DNA from: Cetorhinus maximus
Lineage: Eukaryota
DNA: 64,000 nucleotides
NCBI RefSeq assembly: GCF_964194155.1
Contig: NC_135881.1
Location: 70,556,001 to 70,620,000 of the forward strand
Direction: 5' to 3'
Shown: piece after piece, positions 21,118-64,000 of the stretch
Position numbering within the stretch: position 1 is the first letter of the stretch
How the letters are laid out: each line of letters opens with the position of its first letter
Notes under the pieces: generated by a model
The model's input: the letters and a program-made list of their open reading frames with translations, nothing else
Told to the model about the DNA's origin: nothing
Database searches by the model: none
Program-made: the position numbers and the translations under genes

Positions 21118-22324
21118 ATGGGCATTGTTTATTCAGCCGGAGGCACTTCCTCAGATGAGGGGGAGAGGGCAAGAAGGGAGAGGAGGCCAGCTGGCTGGAG
21201 ACAGCATCATAGAATCTGCCCGCAAGATCAAAGAGCACAACCTGAAGGGGTTAAGGCCAGCAAGGCTTGCAAGGGAGAAGGGGCAGGAGCAGGAGCCAAT
21301 GCCCTGCCAGAAGAGTCTACAGAGTTGGATCCAACTATCTTGAGATGACTGGGGCCCAGTGCTGAAGAAGGGTCCACCTCTCAAGGGAGACAGTAACCTC
21401 AATCTGTGAGATGATAGGGCCTGAGATCACGTCCAACTGTGTAGGTGGGGACCCAATGCCAGTGGTGCTGAAAGTGAATATCGCCCTCAATATTTATGCC
21501 TCAGGTTCCTTCCAGGGTCCTGTTGGGGATCTCTGCGATGTGTCAGAATCCGCAGCACACAGCTGCATAAAGCCTGTCATGGATGCACTCTTCAGAAGGG
21601 TCAACACCTTCATACATTTCAAAACAGATGATGATAACCAGGCGAGTGTGCGAGAGGACTTACAACTATTGCAGACTTCCCAAAGATTCAGGGAGCTATT
21701 GATTGCACCCATGAGTCCATCACTACACCTGCGGGAGAACCGGGGGCCTTTGTGAATCATTGAGGGCTTCCACTCGCTCAACACCCAACTACTGTGCGAT
21801 CACCAGCAGCAGATCCTCTATGTTTGTGCAAGGTATCCTAGGAGTTGCCATGATTCATGTATTCTCTGTCACTCCCAAGTCCCAAGGCTTCTCATTCCCC
21901 TGCATGCTTGGATGGCTAGTTGTTGGGGGCTGATGACATCAATTGGCCATCCAAGAACACTGTGGAGGAGAGGTACAACACAAGCCATGTCTCCACAAGG
22001 GCCAGAGTTGAGAGGTCAATAAGCCTCCTGAAAGTGAGGTTCCGTTGCCTGGACCGGTCTGGAGGCTCTCTTCAATATCCTCTGGAACATGTGTCATTGA
22101 CTGTGGTTGTGTTCTCTGCCCTGCACAATCTGGCTCTCTCTTGGGGAGATCAGATGGAGGGTGGAGACTGTCATGTACTTCCACAATCCATTGAGGAGGA
22201 TTCCAGCACAGACTCCAAGGAAAAACCTGCTCACCCACAGGGTTATGATGATGACCCAGCAATGAGGCAGCTTTTGGGGGCCAGGGAGACCAGGGACACT
22301 TTGATTCAAAGGAGCTTCCAGTAG
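21118..22324 (+). pseudogene. Harbinger/PIF (HARBI1-like) DDE transposase, disrupted
   Basis: MPVVLKVNIALNIYASGSFQ, YNTSHVSTRARVERSISLLKVRFRCLD, ALHNLAL, acidic tail; element begins ~20670. Confidence 0.88.
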
Positions 22325-22368
22325 GCCTCCAAAGTCAACATTCCACACCACTGGAAAGGTACAGCTAC

Positions 22369-22624
22369 TGTAGTAATTATAGTTTCATTTGGTGTGTAAT
22401 GTGCCTTTAAGAAAAATGCTTGTTAAGGAAGATCACATGATTTATAGTAACCAATAGGAGAGTAACGCGGGCTACCTCAGTAGTCAGTAGTATAGAGATA
22501 CAGTTGGAGTTGAAAGCTCCAACGCAGCTGCTGAGCACCTTGTAAATAAACTTAAAGTTCCCACCCAAGAAGCGTCTTTGGATCAATTCTATCAATAGTA
22601 CCAACTCGGCCACCACTCACAACA
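22369..22624 (+). repeat. 5' LTR
   Basis: tgtagtaatt...cacaaca, with AATAAA, followed by the PBS. Confidence 0.92.
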
Positions 22625-23919
22625 AACTGGCAATGAGGATAAAACAAGATTAAACAGAAGAAATCAAGTTAAAAAGAAATCAGCGCTGTACCTCACCCAG
22701 TGACTGTAAGTAGAAATCTCCTTTTGATCCAGCCACAGACAACTGGTCTCATTACATAGAACGCCTCACATTCTTTTTTCAAGCGAATGAGATGATGGGG
22801 GAAGAGAAGAGGCGAGTGATCCTCTTAAGTACATCTGGGATTAAAACCTACGGTTTGATTTGAAGTTTGATGGCACCCAGTGCCCCAGATTCAAAAAATT
22901 TCAATGAATTGGTGGACCTCATGAAGGGTCATTATCAACACAGCCCTCAGTAATGATGCAGAGGTTCAAGTTTAATATGATAAATAGAGCCCTGAGTGAG
23001 ACAGCTGCATCCTATGTGGAAAATTTGAAGCAGCTAACAGAACATTGTGAGTTTGGTAAGTCTCTAAATGACATGCTTAGAGATCGTTTAGTGTGTGGTG
23101 TGAAAGAGGACACTATTCAGAAGAGAAGTGTCGGAAGTGAATTTGGATTTCAAGAAGGCGTTAGAGATAGCACTGGCCATGGGAAGTGCAGCAAGAGGTT
23201 CAAAAGCAATACAGGGCACGCAAAAAGGAGCCATCCTCCACATCAGACAGGAAACCCCAGCTGAAAAGGGAGCGAAAAAGCTAGACTCTGCTGAGAAGTA
23301 GGAAACATCCCCGTTAGCCGAAGAATAAAGAAAAATAACTTAGCAGTGAAATCAAAGAATAATTTCAATAGTGGTGGAAACAAGCACTTTTTAACGATAG
23401 GCAGTTTAAAAAAAATCGATGCTATCATTGTCACAGAAATGGACATATAACGAGAGAGTGTAAGGAAAGATTCAAGCAGGCTTGTAAACAAAAGAAGAAG
23501 CCTAATGTAGAAGAGCCTGAAACAACAAATTCAAACATTTACTCGTTGTTTCATCTGAAAGTTGGAAAGACAGAACCAATATTTGTCACAGTGAAAGTAA
23601 ATGGCAAACTTGTTAGAATGGAAGTGGACACTGGAGTTTCCACTATAGTAATTGGGGAATGTACCTTCAGATAAGTGAATAATTGTGAACATCAATTAAG
23701 TTTAGAAGAAACAGCTGCCAAACTAAAAACATATACGGGTGAAGGCATCCAAGTAAAAGGCAAAAGCAGAGTAACTGTCCGTTATGGAAGCTGATCGGTA
23801 AAGCTATTAAAGCAGTGTATTGAGAGGCAGAGGACCAAGTCATCTAGGGAGAAATTGGCTAAAGGAAATTAACCTCGAGTGGCCACTGAGATTTGAAAAC
23901 GAAGCTGGAAGTGTTCCTG

Positions 23920-24490
23920 TTTTGAAAAAGGAAAAAGGACTCAACAACCTGAAGAAATGTAAACTGTCTTAAGCCAAAACCTGGAAGGAAAGCAAAAGGA
24001 ACTCAAAGAGACCCTGCTTGATGACAGAGTTCGAGATGAGGTGAGCAACCTTCGACGGGGAAAAGAAAACCTGTTGAAAGCCCTTCACACACTACAAGAT
24101 TCCCTCAGGTCAAAGTTTGTACCTCTGGAAAAGTGTGAAGAGAAACTGAAAGAATTCAGCACTTCTCTGAACAAACTGAAGAATGAGCTGGCAGAGAAGA
24201 CACAACAATGCTTAATTTTCCAGGAGGCAGCAAACAAATAGAAAAAGAGATGGAAGAGCTGAAGAATCAACGAAATGAAGCCAAAGAGGCTTTGGAAGTA
24301 AAAGTTGCAGAACTTTCTAAGAATCAGACAGATAATGACATTTTGGGACATTCAACCACTGAGCTCAGACAAGGTGAGCTGGCATCTGAGAGAAGTCCGG
24401 CCAATAGTGAAGTCAAAAAGAAGGCCGAGGTTAAAGTCTGCGCTAGAAAGAAGGCACGTAGAAAGAAGATACAGAAATACTAACAGGACT
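23920..24490 (+). pseudogene. Captured coiled-coil host-gene fragment, UACA/ANKRD24/RAI14-like
   Basis: EVSNLRRGKENLLKALHTLQDSLRSKFVPLEKCEEKLKEFSTSLNKLKNELAEKTQQ, lying between the protease and the RNase H tail; family resemblance is from memory. Confidence 0.55.
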
Positions 24491-26054
24491 TTAATTCTGG
24501 GAGCAAACGAATACACTTTCATACATAGGCCTGCCTGGCAATCAAATCACAAACGCTGGTGCACTTAGTCGTTTGCTTTTACAAGAAAACGATGAGGACG
24601 TCCCAGTTCCACAGGAACTTGTTTTACTGTTAAATTTCTTAGACTCCTCACCAGTATGTGCTCAACAGATCAGAGACTGGACAAATCAGGACCCAGTCCT
24701 ATCTCAAGTATGAGAACAAGTGCTGTATGGTTGGCCGCAAGAGCCTATATCTGACTAAATGAAACCGTACTTCAACAGAAGAGATGAAATAACCAGCCAG
24801 GATGGCATCTTATTGTGGGGAGCACAAGTAATAGCACCTCTAAAGGGAAGGGAGCCACTTTTAATTGAACAACACAGCGCACATCCAGGAATTGCTGGAA
24901 TGAAGACCATAGCATGCAGCTATCTATGGTGGCCTGGGATGGATGGCAAAATAGAGTTTAGTGAAGAATTGTGTGCAATGTCAGCAACTGCATATGTCAC
25001 CTTCAACAGCTCCGTTTCACCCTTGGGAGTGGCCAGGTAGACCCTGGGTGCAGTTACACATTGCCTATGTAGGACCTTTCTTGGGAACAATGTTTCTGCT
25101 CATTGTCAATGCCCATTCAAAATGGTTGCACGTATATGAGGTGAAGTCACCAACATCGGCCGCTGCAATTGAGAAGCTACGTCAAGGTATTGCCATTCAC
25201 AGACTACCAGAGGTAATAGTTTCTGATAACGGCACAGCATTTATGAGTGCTGAGTTTTAACGGTTTATCAGCCTCAACGGTATCACTCATGTGAAAACTG
25301 CACTGTACCACCCTTCCTCAAATGGACTGGCCGAAAGGGTGGTTCAAACATTCAAGGCTGGCATGAAATAGCTAATTGGCGATTCCTTGGCAACCAAGCT
25401 TTCTTTTATATTACTGGACTACCCCTCACAGAACAAGAGGTGTCACACCTGCGGAGTTATTGTTGAAACGCCGTCTCAGGACGAGATTGAGATTATTAAT
25501 GCCGAATTTAGAGGGGAAGGTGGAAAGGGAAGCCAGAAAACTAGACACGGCTGGCATAGCCGTGAGAGGAAATTTATTGTGAGAGAGATGGTATATGTGA
25601 AGAACTTCAGAGAAGGACCAATGTGGTTGCTTGGTGAAATAAGTGCAGTAACTGGACATCTATCTTACCACGTGGAGATGGGAGGCTGGGTCATATGGAA
25701 ACATGTGGACCATTTAAGGGAGAGAGAGACAAACTACCAGATTTGGATCCACCAGTGATCACGACTGGGTTAGAGTTTCCTGTTGAGGATATTCAACCCA
25801 GGACAGACATTCCTGATGTCTGAGTTGAGGATGCAGAACTACAAGTCCCACCAAAGCATCTGATGTTCAGGCAACTCCGGAAAGGGAGGTTCTTTACAGA
25901 GTATCTGGAGTTGTGGAGCTGCGACATTCTACATGCATCAGGAAACCACATAGAAAGACTGAACTTGTAAATTCCTTACCCAGTGTAAATATTATGTTGT
26001 CTTGAAAAATTTGTACTTGTAAATATATGTATATCCAAGTTAAAGGAAGAGGAA

Positions 26055-26282
26055 TGCAGTAATTATGGTTTTATTTAGTGTGTAATGTACCTTTAAGAAA
26101 AATGCATTAACCAATAGGAGAGTAGCGTGGGCTACCTCAGTAGTCAGTAGTATAGAGATAGAGTTGGAGTTGAAAGCATACATATAGTTGCTGCTGAGTA
26201 TATTGTAAATAAACTTAAAGTTTCCAAAAAGTGTCTGTGGATCAATTCTATCAATAGTACAACTCAACCATCACACACAACA
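26055..26282 (+). repeat. 3' LTR (about 28 bp shorter than the 5' LTR)
   Basis: tgcagtaatt...cacaaca directly after the PPT aaaggaagaggaa. Confidence 0.92.
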
Positions 26283-26287
26283 GTTAC

Positions 26288-28086: not shown

Positions 28087-28342
28087 TGTTGTAGGGTGGC
28101 CGAGTTGTGCTATTAATGATAGAGTTGATCAGCAGACACTTCTTGGGTGGAAACATTAAGTTTATTTACAATATACTTAGTAGCAACTACATGTGTGCTT
28201 TCAACTCCAACTCTATCTCTACACTGACTCCTGTGGTAGCCCACACTCCTCTCCTATTGGTTACTACAGATCATGTGATCTTTCCTAACATGTATTATTC
28301 TTAAAAGTACATTGCACATTAAATAAAACCATAATTACTACA
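28087..28342 (-). mobile_element. Solo LTR of the same Gypsy family
   Basis: Reverse-complement similarity to 22369-22624; perfect 5-bp TSD gaatg at 28082-28086 and 28343-28347. Confidence 0.92.
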
Positions 28343-53747: not shown

Positions 53748-54985
53748 TGGAGCATGGTGAACTAGCAGTATGCCTGATGGCCTACAGAGCGTGAGAGAAA
53801 GTGACTGAGGCTTCTGGCTGCACAGAGGCAGGAGCAGAAACCTCAGGAAGAAGGGGCGGCTAGGGTGCCCACACACGTTGCCCAGGAGCCAGTGCGAGCT
53901 GTCGCTGGTTGGCACCTAGCGACATCCAGGGTCTATAGGCGCCACCTTTCAGTCCTGCAGATGACCGAGAACCAGTGTCGCCGAAAGCTGTGCATGTCTA
54001 GGGAACTGGTCGCTCACATCTACCAGCTACTGCAGGATTTGGCACCATGGGGACATGGAGGGCATCCACTGCCAGTGGCTGTGAAAGTGACTGTGGCGCT
54101 CAATTTCTACACCAGTTGCTCCTTTGAGGGCTCCACAGGTGACCACTCTGGGATCTGACAAGCCTCCACCCACAAATGCATCCATGAGGTCACGGATGCC
54201 ATCTTTGTGAGGGCACACAACTTTGTGCATTTCACCCGGGACCAGGACAGCCAGGATGCAAGAGCGATTGGATTCACCCAGATCTCGTGTTTCCCACATG
54301 TGCGGGGTGCGAATGACTGCATTCATGTGGCGCTCAGATCTCAGTCGCAACACACAGTGACTTCATCAACTGCAAGGGTTTCCATTTGCTGAATGTGCAG
54401 CTGGTGTGTGACCACCAGAAACACATCCTGCAGGTTTGCGCACGGTTTCCAGGGAGTGTGCACGACACCTACATCCTCAGTCGGTCACAGATCCCTGGAG
54501 TCTTCCAGGGTCCACAGAAGCTGCAGGGATGGCTCTTTGAGGGCAAGGGCTACCCGCAGAGGCTGTGGCTGATGACACCCATACGGTGGCCTCAGACTGC
54601 AGCAGAGCGATGGCATAACGAGGCTCATGATGCAACTCACAACTTGGTGGAACAAACCATCGGGATGCTGAAGGTGAGGTTCCAGTGCCTGGACCGGTTT
54701 GGTGGAGCCCTGCAATACAGTCCACAGAGGGTGCCACGTGTCGTTGTTATCTGCTGCGCCCTTTACAACCTGGTACTGCAATGGGGAGACAAACTGGCTG
54801 AGGAGGACATGGAGAAGCTGCACGTCTCCAACGATGAGGAGGATGCCAATGGGAATGAGGGTCAGGAGGTCCTCGGAGAAGACGATGACGGGGATGAGGG
54901 CCTCACACTGGCTGGATGAGACAAACGTGCTTGGGAGGCCCTCATAGCTGCCAGATTTGTGGAGGATGATGTCAACATGCAGTGA
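53748..54985 (+). pseudogene. HARBI1-like DDE transposase, disrupted
   Basis: LPVAVKVTVALNFY, GANDCIHVAL, LNVQLVCD..ARFPGSVHDTYIL, KGYP..WLMTP, VEQTIGMLKVRFQCLD, CCALYNL; stops and frameshifts. Confidence 0.9.
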
Positions 54986-62334: not shown

Positions 62335-64000
62335 TAAGAATAAGAGCAATAGTAATAGGGAATTCTATAGTCAGGGGAACAAATAGGCACTACTGTGGCC
62401 GTCAACGTGACTCCAGGATGGTATGTTGCCTCCCTGGTGCCAGGGTCTGGGATGTCACTGAATGGCTACAGGGCATCCTGAAGGGGGAGGGTGATCAGGC
62501 AGAGGTCATGGCACATGTTGGTACCAATGACATAGGTAGAAAGAGGGGTGAGGTCTTGCATCAAGAATTCAGGGAGTTAGGCAGTAGACAGGACCTCTCG
62601 GGTTGCAATCTCTGGATTACTCCTAGTGCCACATGCTAGCGAGCTCAGAAATAGGAGAATAGCGCAGATGAATATGTGGCTTAAGAGTTGGTGCAGGAGG
62701 GAGGATTTGAGATTCCGGGATCACTGGGACCGTTTCTGGGGAAGGTGGGACCTGTACAAGCGGGACAGTCTACATCTGAACCAGAGCGGGACTAACATCC
62801 TTGCAGGTGGGTTTGCTAGTGCTGCTGGGAGGAGTTTAAACTAATTCAGCAGGGGGAGGGGACACAGAATGTTAGCAGAATAGGGACACATCATAATACA
62901 GTAAAACAATCAAGTCAGAGGGAGTACAGCTGCATGAAGTTTCAAGGGAGTAAGGCAAGGCAAGAAGGCCTCTACTTTAAGGAGTACTACAGGTAAAATG
63001 GACGAGTTAAGGGTGAGCCAAAACAAAAACAGAATTACCTGGAAAAACTCAGCAGGTCTGGCAGCATCGGCGGAGAAGAAATCAGTTAACGTTTCGAGCC
63101 TTCATGGCCCTTCGGCAGAACTGAAGCATAGTTAGGAGAAGGGAGAAATATAAACATATAAAAACATATAAATATAAACATATAAAACATATAAAAATAT
63201 ATAAAGGGCCATGAAGGCTCGAAACGTTAACTGATTTCTTCTCCGCCGATGCTGCCAGACCTGCTGAGTTTTTCCAGGTAATTCTGTTTTTGTTTTGGAT
63301 TTCAGGCATCCGCAGTAGCTTTTAGCTTTTTGTTTTTATCTCTGAGTTAAGGGTGAGGATTGACACGCGGAATTTGATATAGTAGCAATCACAGAGACGT
63401 GGTTGAAGGAGGGACAGGATTGGCAGCTCAACATTCCAGGATATAGAATCTTTAGGTGAGACAGGGGAGGGGGTAAAAGAGGAGGAGACATTGCATTATT
63501 AGTTAAGGAGTCAGTTACTGCAGTAAGGAGAGATGATATCTTGGAGGGGGCATCGAATGAAGTTTTGTGGATAGAGCTTAGGAATAAAAAAAGGGGCAGC
63601 CACATTGTTAGGTGTTTATTATAGACCCCCAGATAGTCAGCAGGAAATTGAGGAGCAAATATGTGCACAATTTGCAGAGCTGCGTAAAAACATTAACAAT
63701 AGGGTAATTCTATTAGGTGATTTCAACTTTCCCAACATTAATTGGAATAGACATAGTGTTAAAGGCTTGGATGGAGTCAATTTCTTGAAATGTGTACAGG
63801 AGAACCTTTTAGGTCAATATGTAGAGGGCCCAACAAGGGACGGCGCAGTGCTGGACCTAATTCTGGGGAATGAAGCCGGACAGGTGGCTGAGGTGGTGGT
63901 GGGGGAGCATTTTAGTCATAGCGACCACAACATGGTACAATTTAAGCTTGTTATGGACAAAGAAATAGACAAGTTTCAAAAAAATATTTTGGATTGGGAG
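62335..64000 (+). mobile_element. CR1 LINE: ORF1 SGNH esterase and ORF2 APE start, continuing beyond the window
   Basis: IVIGNSIVRG, CLPGA, HVGTND, DSLHLN; then AITETWL, YYRPP, LGDFNFP, LDLILGN, SDHN. Confidence 0.9.
63018..63343. mobile_element. Palindromic mini-Penelope insertion with 14-bp TSD
   Basis: 95-bp inverted arms at 63018-63112 and 63204-63298; TSD gagttaagggtgag at 63004-63017 and 63344-63357; near-identical to 3231-3353. Confidence 0.92.

Follow-up and report, generated by a model that had tools for sequence, protein, structure and literature searches.

A UACA-derived coil in place of reverse transcriptase in a Gypsy-derived family of Cetorhinus maximus, most likely acquired by way of another LTR family

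The window, that is the whole stretch of 64,000 nucleotides of Cetorhinus maximus analysed here, holds a Gypsy-like element with coding sequence for a predicted helical protein in the place of reverse transcriptase (RT), and raises the question of where this sequence came from and whether it was of use to the element. The original prediction, made from the letters alone, was that RT and RNase H had been replaced by a coiled-coil segment captured directly from a host mRNA by template switching. The reading favoured here, with a probability of about 0.7, is that the window contains a decayed copy of an RT-less Gypsy-derived family whose UACA coil was obtained second-hand by template switching, in frame with gag and protease, and that the coil was likely of use to the element, its most probable role being the predicted one of a dimerising substitute for RT. 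The element occupies 22369-26282 (3.9 kb) and comprises gag, protease, a 0.55-kb insert, an RNase H tail and integrase. Its features are as follows (window coordinates; L031 denotes the host UACA locus).

22364..22368, +, left copy of the target-site duplication (5 bp, one mismatch against the right copy)
22369..22624, +, 5' LTR with TG...CA ends, 11% diverged from the 3' LTR (25/225 columns)
22628..22640, +, primer-binding-site-like stretch, also present in helper copies
22790..23470, +, gag, decayed, start approximate, 80-86% DNA identity to RT-bearing copies
about 23417-23467, +, zinc knuckle in gag (zf-CCHC, E 0.039, a weak match)
23585..23873, +, aspartic protease, decayed, DTG at 23627 (Asp_protease_2, E 8e-4)
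23847-23873, +, protease end LGRNWLKEI
23805..23925, +, protease end and linker specific to the insert family, 24-58% different from the helper
23926..24266, +, captured UACA block 1 in sense orientation, corresponding to host L031 2723-2372 and fused in frame to protease in natural copies
24258..24369, +, captured UACA block 2 (host L031 1930-1819)
24370..24480, +, spacer common to donor elements, ending where the donors' ninein piece starts
24481..24483, +, stop codon closing the gag-protease-coil frame
24275..24485, +, overlapping +1 frame that begins at an ATG, runs for 69 codons and leads without a break into RNase H tail and integrase
24486..25970, +, RNase H tail and integrase, decayed
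about 24843-24956, +, integrase H2C2 zinc domain; integrase core about 25087-25257
26041..26054, +, polypurine tract, read from the sequence
26055..26282, +, 3' LTR
26283..26287, +, right copy of the target-site duplication

The structural marks of Ty3/Gypsy elements (two TG...CA LTRs, a short target-site duplication, primer-binding site and polypurine tract) are all present. So is the Gypsy order of gag, protease and integrase after the RNase H tail, and the full order with RT is found in RT-bearing relatives, termed helper copies below. The primer-binding stretch may match tRNA-Ser. The protease end and the RNase H tail lie where the original prediction had put them. The end of the linker, given there as ~23895, needs correcting: element-derived linker continues to about 23925. 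The predicted lack of RT between protease and RNase H tail was borne out, as searches with the RT frames of two helper copies found none in the window element (best E 5.5). Since it has no RT and RNase H of its own, the element is classed as a non-autonomous derivative of Ty3/Gypsy and not as an autonomous member. Frameshifts near 23930 and 24240, together with scattered stops, interrupt the coding sequence of the window copy. A contig from sequencing run X6, labelled as an organism other than that of run X5, covers the 3' LTR together with 500 nt of unique flanking sequence and shows 42 differences, and this bridging of the same insertion site suggests that the insertion likely predates a species split.

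Other repeats lie in the same window. A decayed Harbinger/PIF-type transposase (21366-22324, +; DDE_Tnp_4, E 4e-7) ends about 40 nt before the 5' LTR, and a related piece is located near 54668. A solo LTR of the insert family with a perfect 5-bp target duplication is found at 28087-28342 (-). Near-perfect inverted repeats (1-615 against 740-1354, 99% over 615 nt; 63018-63112 against 63204-63298, 100% over 95 nt) are possibly young inversions or assembly artefacts.

The insert, about 23926-24480, takes the place of about 1.2-1.26 kb of helper sequence in all three helper copies measured. The predicted resemblance to UACA was confirmed at both the protein and the DNA level. The naturally open frame of copy L002 (202 residues) matches shark UACA (best E 4e-25, 51% identity), its eight protein matches being six named shark UACA proteins, one unnamed UACA-like Logan protein and one element-containing gene model. 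The window insert itself is 75% identical over 210 nt to the UACA exon of its own genome (E 2e-33), with a second block of 64 nt. This host exon (G000:C27:11440482-11443208; 911 codons, 2.7 kb) is 94.7% identical to Carcharodon UACA and 77-83% identical to that of other galeomorph sharks, which makes a lamniform host likely. The insert is composed of two UACA blocks joined by an in-frame deletion and of a spacer of 85-100 nt. The deletion junction contains a 9-nt common word and is identical in donor subfamily B, one of the LTR groups described below. No host match to the spacer was found in searches limited to proteins of up to 2,000 residues, and scanning the insert against Pfam and PDB sequences yielded generic coiled-coil matches only; a match involving P0012 and P0014 was rejected as compositional noise. 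As in LTR-mediated retrocopies, the UACA piece is sense-oriented, replaces part of the element's open reading frames and has no flanking duplication of its own. Both blocks lie inside one exon, so this piece cannot show mRNA capture by intron loss. Public shark gene models P0009, P0010 and P0011 are, or include, pieces of insert-family or donor elements, and P0009, an MHC-class-I-like Carcharodon model, has a piece of insert-family type between two MHC-like halves; elements carrying UACA, ninein and TPR thus mislead shark gene annotation.

The segment belongs to a large family. With the insert as query 3,669 candidate places were obtained, and each of the 39 non-self matches that were scored extends over the full insert at 89-90%; the family-specific protease end gave 1,679. 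Because copies were chosen by likeness to the window, these counts are biased and are to be read as lower bounds. All 29 fetched copies cross both insert junctions and contain no RT, in line with the predicted spread of a non-autonomous family. A later insertion or processed pseudogene confined to the window copy is thereby already refuted: about 1.2 kb of RT and RNase H is missing rather than interrupted, as had been predicted, no duplication flanks the insert, and no point was found in favour of such an event. The summed contig depth over the insert in X5, a run identical to the window (about 19,000-92,000, against 9-13 for contigs of unique flank) is not a copy number and fits a large family. 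Transcription from the LTR was sought in four runs with shares of 0.04-0.06, three of them presumed to be RNA; two presumed RNA runs yielded short contigs only, at 90-95% identity.

The helper family has LTR, primer site, gag and integrase in common with the insert family and carries RT (RVT_1). This RT has its best solved matches in Ty3 RT (E 1e-39), with caulimovirus-type and retroviral RTs further down, a ranking by similarity and not by a tree; a resemblance to the Mag clade of Gypsy is possible. Among 29 loci chosen by integrase alone, 16 contain RT only, 10 the insert only, two both and one neither. RT-bearing copies are about 4.7 kb long against 4.0 kb for insert copies, and LTR divergence, obtained for 7 of 10 loci tried, is 9-11% (3 copies) and 10-17% (3 copies), respectively. 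Net divergence between the families is about zero in gag and integrase and 24-58% over the last 125 nt of protease plus linker, a contrast that we explain by an old cassette having been transferred to the helper backbone or renewed from it many times. Two recombinants (L083/L139 and L094) join the insert to the RT end, RNase H and integrase of the helper, so that exchange between family and helper is seen directly. Between its helper LTRs, L139 also contains repeats and a UACA piece that are both of donor type. No intermediate backbone with the family protease end and RT emerged from the match scores of 40 places. Secondary retroposition with common switch points is present in the insert family.

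A genome search with full-length UACA recovered dozens of further decayed copies, in which the UACA pieces are longer, have their outer ends in common and differ in internal deletions. Recognisable LTR pairs, unlike those of the insert family, flank 11 of the 18 fetched, and tblastn with insert-family and helper frames found gag, protease, RT or integrase in none of these 11; one donor frame may be gag-like. The donor set (L051-L068, G000 stretches) consists of LTR families in which no pol was detected, with several deletion and rearrangement patterns, and a donor-type spacer used as query gave 2,518 candidate places. Their cargo is UACA, the spacer, ninein (E 9e-19) and TPR (the PF25481 N-terminal coil, E 2e-22), and the host exon of ninein was located as well. 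In a single copy the TPR part can match as many as eight distinct stretches of host exon; they follow in order, lack introns and mostly have AG/GT borders, and these spliced exons establish mRNA capture for the donor lineage. Short overlaps of 5-20 nt are found at 11 of 13 junctions between captured pieces; the two outer insert junctions share only a few letters, as judged by eye. All 13 junctions between captured pieces are in frame, but this was rejected as proof of selection, as 57-85% of 7-9-nt microhomologies are also in frame in a chance null.

Several donor copies have further features. L055, L056, L062 and L067 have the UACA end and spacer upstream of the main UACA block, in a rearranged order. 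At L059 (5538-5933, -) a further coil-like stretch lies upstream of UACA; its source was not found among proteins of up to 2,000 residues, and it may be a fourth captured gene. At L058 a donor-type element lies, in opposite orientation, within another Gypsy; the RNase H/integrase of that Gypsy shows about 60% identity with that of the insert family. Speculatively, the thousands of UACA, ninein and TPR fragments could yield small RNAs against those host genes.

Relationships between the insert and the donors bear on the route of capture. Aligned with subfamily B, the insert is 71-72% identical over a stretch that includes the deletion junction as well as the non-UACA spacer. A protein tree built on 115 codons places six insert-family copies within subfamily B (97% support), on a long stem. 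All element-borne UACA forms one group (77-88% support) that branches after Heterodontus, near the split of the other galeomorph orders, a position to which long branches may have pulled it down. A Carcharodon gene-model piece agrees at 38-40 of 49 positions with three insert-family copies and at 30-32 of 47 with subfamily B. These comparisons make it most likely that the Gypsy family received its UACA piece from LTR elements of another family, in which the fragment had been taken up and trimmed beforehand. If the Gypsy family had instead acquired UACA mRNA or DNA independently and straight from the host, the sense orientation and in-frame fusion would be accounted for, and a deletion junction with a 9-nt common word could recur. 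Yet the spacer, which is not UACA sequence, and the first part of the ninein piece occur in family and donors alike, and the family nests inside subfamily B; the spacer in particular brings direct capture close to refutation, and we consider it highly improbable. The original prediction was therefore correct as to host gene, replacement of RT and RNase H, non-autonomy and spread as a family, while its direct route most likely gives way to a second-hand one.

The prediction of a single gag-protease-coil-integrase frame did not hold. Gag, protease and coil are indeed open together: natural copies L014 and L017 have one continuous frame from gag through protease to the coil, and there are no common stops in 435 codons (30 copies). 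This frame closes at 24481-24483, however, and the RNase H tail and integrase are in the +1 frame. After 24275, 39 family copies have no +1 stop in common, compared with five for the nine copies of subfamily B. All five ancestral +1 stops have been lost there, against 2 of 9 upstream (Fisher P 0.010 and 0.024, the test being repeated with a second reference), and upstream +1 stops persist (8 in the family, 9 in B). The family's +2 frame has 11 stops, up from 5. Windows as open as the +1 stretch are found in 5 of 841 cases in the host exon and 0 of 506 in ninein; shuffling the family's own downstream codons gives P 0.05. The +1-frame ATG is also present in 9 of 9 B copies and so provides by itself no evidence for a +1 start.

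An alternative is that the +1 frame is open by chance or as a relic, such as one of an earlier backbone with coil and integrase in one frame, and that the family's integrase was never made; this appears rather unlikely. No entry signal was identified, and by eye no known slippery site was seen near the frame; the shuffle value of P 0.05 points the same way. Integrase constraint within the family is weaker than in the helper (0.63-0.72 against 0.53-0.56), and integrase openness could stem from recent exchange with the helper. Against this, two frames stayed free of common stops while the third accumulated them, and stop loss was complete downstream of 24275 and partial upstream.

Selection on the coil was assessed on the branch from the donor. 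Net dN/dS between family and subfamily B is 0.43 in the UACA frame, with an interval (0.27-0.76, on about 115 codons) that overlaps the within-family value of 0.70, and 2.25 and 1.40 in the other frames. A value of 0.25 by plain counting was set aside, as it ignores transition and CpG bias. CpG-free transitions are fewer at codon position 2 than at position 3 (0.097 against 0.247, bootstrap P 0.021), as are CpG-free transversions (P 0.031); alongside this comparison, copies within the family decay near neutrally (0.90). The last 73 codons gave no significant net constraint in either frame (0.75 and 0.58, intervals including 1), and donor subfamilies B, C and D gave no significant selection signal (P 0.19-0.82). 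This signal for purifying selection on the coil along that branch, at the level of codon comparison, is modest but consistent. Changes in the coil look filtered by selection, which suggests that the captured piece likely worked for the element.

These results can be ordered into a proposed history. It would begin in the donor LTR elements, whose UACA, ninein and intron-less TPR attest mRNA capture in that lineage. A trimmed subfamily B cassette then, very probably, entered a Gypsy backbone, where it came to lie with the protease linker on one side and the RNase H tail on the other. There the cassette probably evolved under selection at the protein level and opened a +1 frame into integrase, so that the source element would have supplied its own Gag-protease-coil and integrase, with RT alone being borrowed, presumably as a co-packaged helper protein. 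Copying in trans by an RT-bearing helper, with continued exchange of flanks, is strongly inferred. Finally, and more tentatively, the coil may have promoted pairing of Gag-protease precursors, by analogy with the role of RT in retroviral Gag-Pol.

What the coil did is the least certain part. It is predicted to be almost wholly helix, with long helices (mean pLDDT 81); a predicted complex of two coil copies scored 0.09 against a mark of 0.32, which counts neither for nor against pairing. In HIV, RT promotes Gag-Pol pairing and thereby protease activation (PMC11998509). A zipper placed after the HIV protease enhances its activation to excess and lowers particle yield through premature cleavage (PMC3291649), so a dimerising module can also do harm. 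The same history could have ended with the coil as a tolerated stuffer of no binding function, in which an open, soluble frame mattered for RNA stability and packaging by its own Gag. This is possible although doubtful. The weak constraint, the one-residue in-frame gap and the strong amino-acid divergence along the stem (0.29 per site) are compatible with it, as are donors without significant selection; long A-rich single exons, moreover, offer many microhomologies. It accounts less well for a synonymous excess beyond stop avoidance in two CpG-free tests, and all three identified captured genes gave coiled-coil stretches, although common composition also favours switching among them. The helical prediction and the HIV precedents lead us to favour a dimerising stand-in, itself somewhat below even odds, over a mere stuffer. 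A still more inclusive account is unlikely as a whole: a UACA/ninein/TPR mRNA cassette, assembled near the base of galeomorph sharks and passed between unrelated LTR families, would have become a Gag-protease dimeriser in RT's stead and been overprinted with a leader frame for integrase, aiding spread to thousands of copies.

Several known systems resemble parts of this family. TRIM and LARD elements are non-autonomous LTR elements without coding frames that are mobilised in trans by an autonomous partner. The insert family is like them in its very probable trans mobilisation; unlike these elements, defined by having no internal coding capacity, it kept two long open frames. Transducing retroviruses carry a host gene in place of pol, and have in common with the shark family a Gag fused to host sequence and the need of a helper for RT. 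In contrast to them, the shark family is intracellular, with no envelope seen, has been amplified in the germ line and keeps protease and integrase, and its cargo is a structural coil and not a signalling oncogene. In the TPR-MET kinase fusion, TPR lends a dimerisation domain to the fused enzyme (PMC4175590). Donors carry the N-terminal coil of TPR, but the likeness is an analogy only, as the insert family has lost the TPR piece and pairing of its UACA piece is a proposal.

Literature searches, run without supplements, subscription papers or repeat libraries, found nothing on UACA in shark retrotransposons, and unrelated titles only on shark Gypsy coiled coils or overlapping integrase frames of LTR retrotransposons; the families may already have been catalogued without this reading. 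The closest precedents are captures by other LTR elements. Animal LTR-mediated retrocopies (Tan et al. 2016, PMC5131818) also have element open reading frames partly replaced by partial mRNA, multi-gene chimeras and secondary retroposition; the short words at their switch points may have a counterpart in the overlaps between captured pieces here. Those are young and of single or few copies, whereas the shark family is old and high-copy, with signs of selection on the element branch and an overprinted second frame. Maize Bs1 is likewise an LTR element with partial exonic pieces of three host genes, common switch points and a hybrid open frame (PMC13317346, PMC5131818). Bs1 has one to five copies according to PMC5131818, against the thousands of candidate places of insert family and donor-type spacer; moreover, all three sources of the shark elements are coiled coils, and their cassette moved between element families with no detected common coding sequence.

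LTR gene capture of the Bs1 kind is thus already known. Structure and origin of the present family are well supported and selection moderately so, and what appears new is scale, age, passage between element families, signs of selection and the overprinted frame. Most known examples of LTR elements that captured host genes are rare, young or low in copy number; here the captured sequence has become a lasting, high-copy part of element families. A second reading frame appears to have arisen on host DNA whose ancestral state is still in the genome. With this state preserved and with signs of selection, comparison alone can address both whether captured host domains can be of use to a transposon and how overlapping frames originate.
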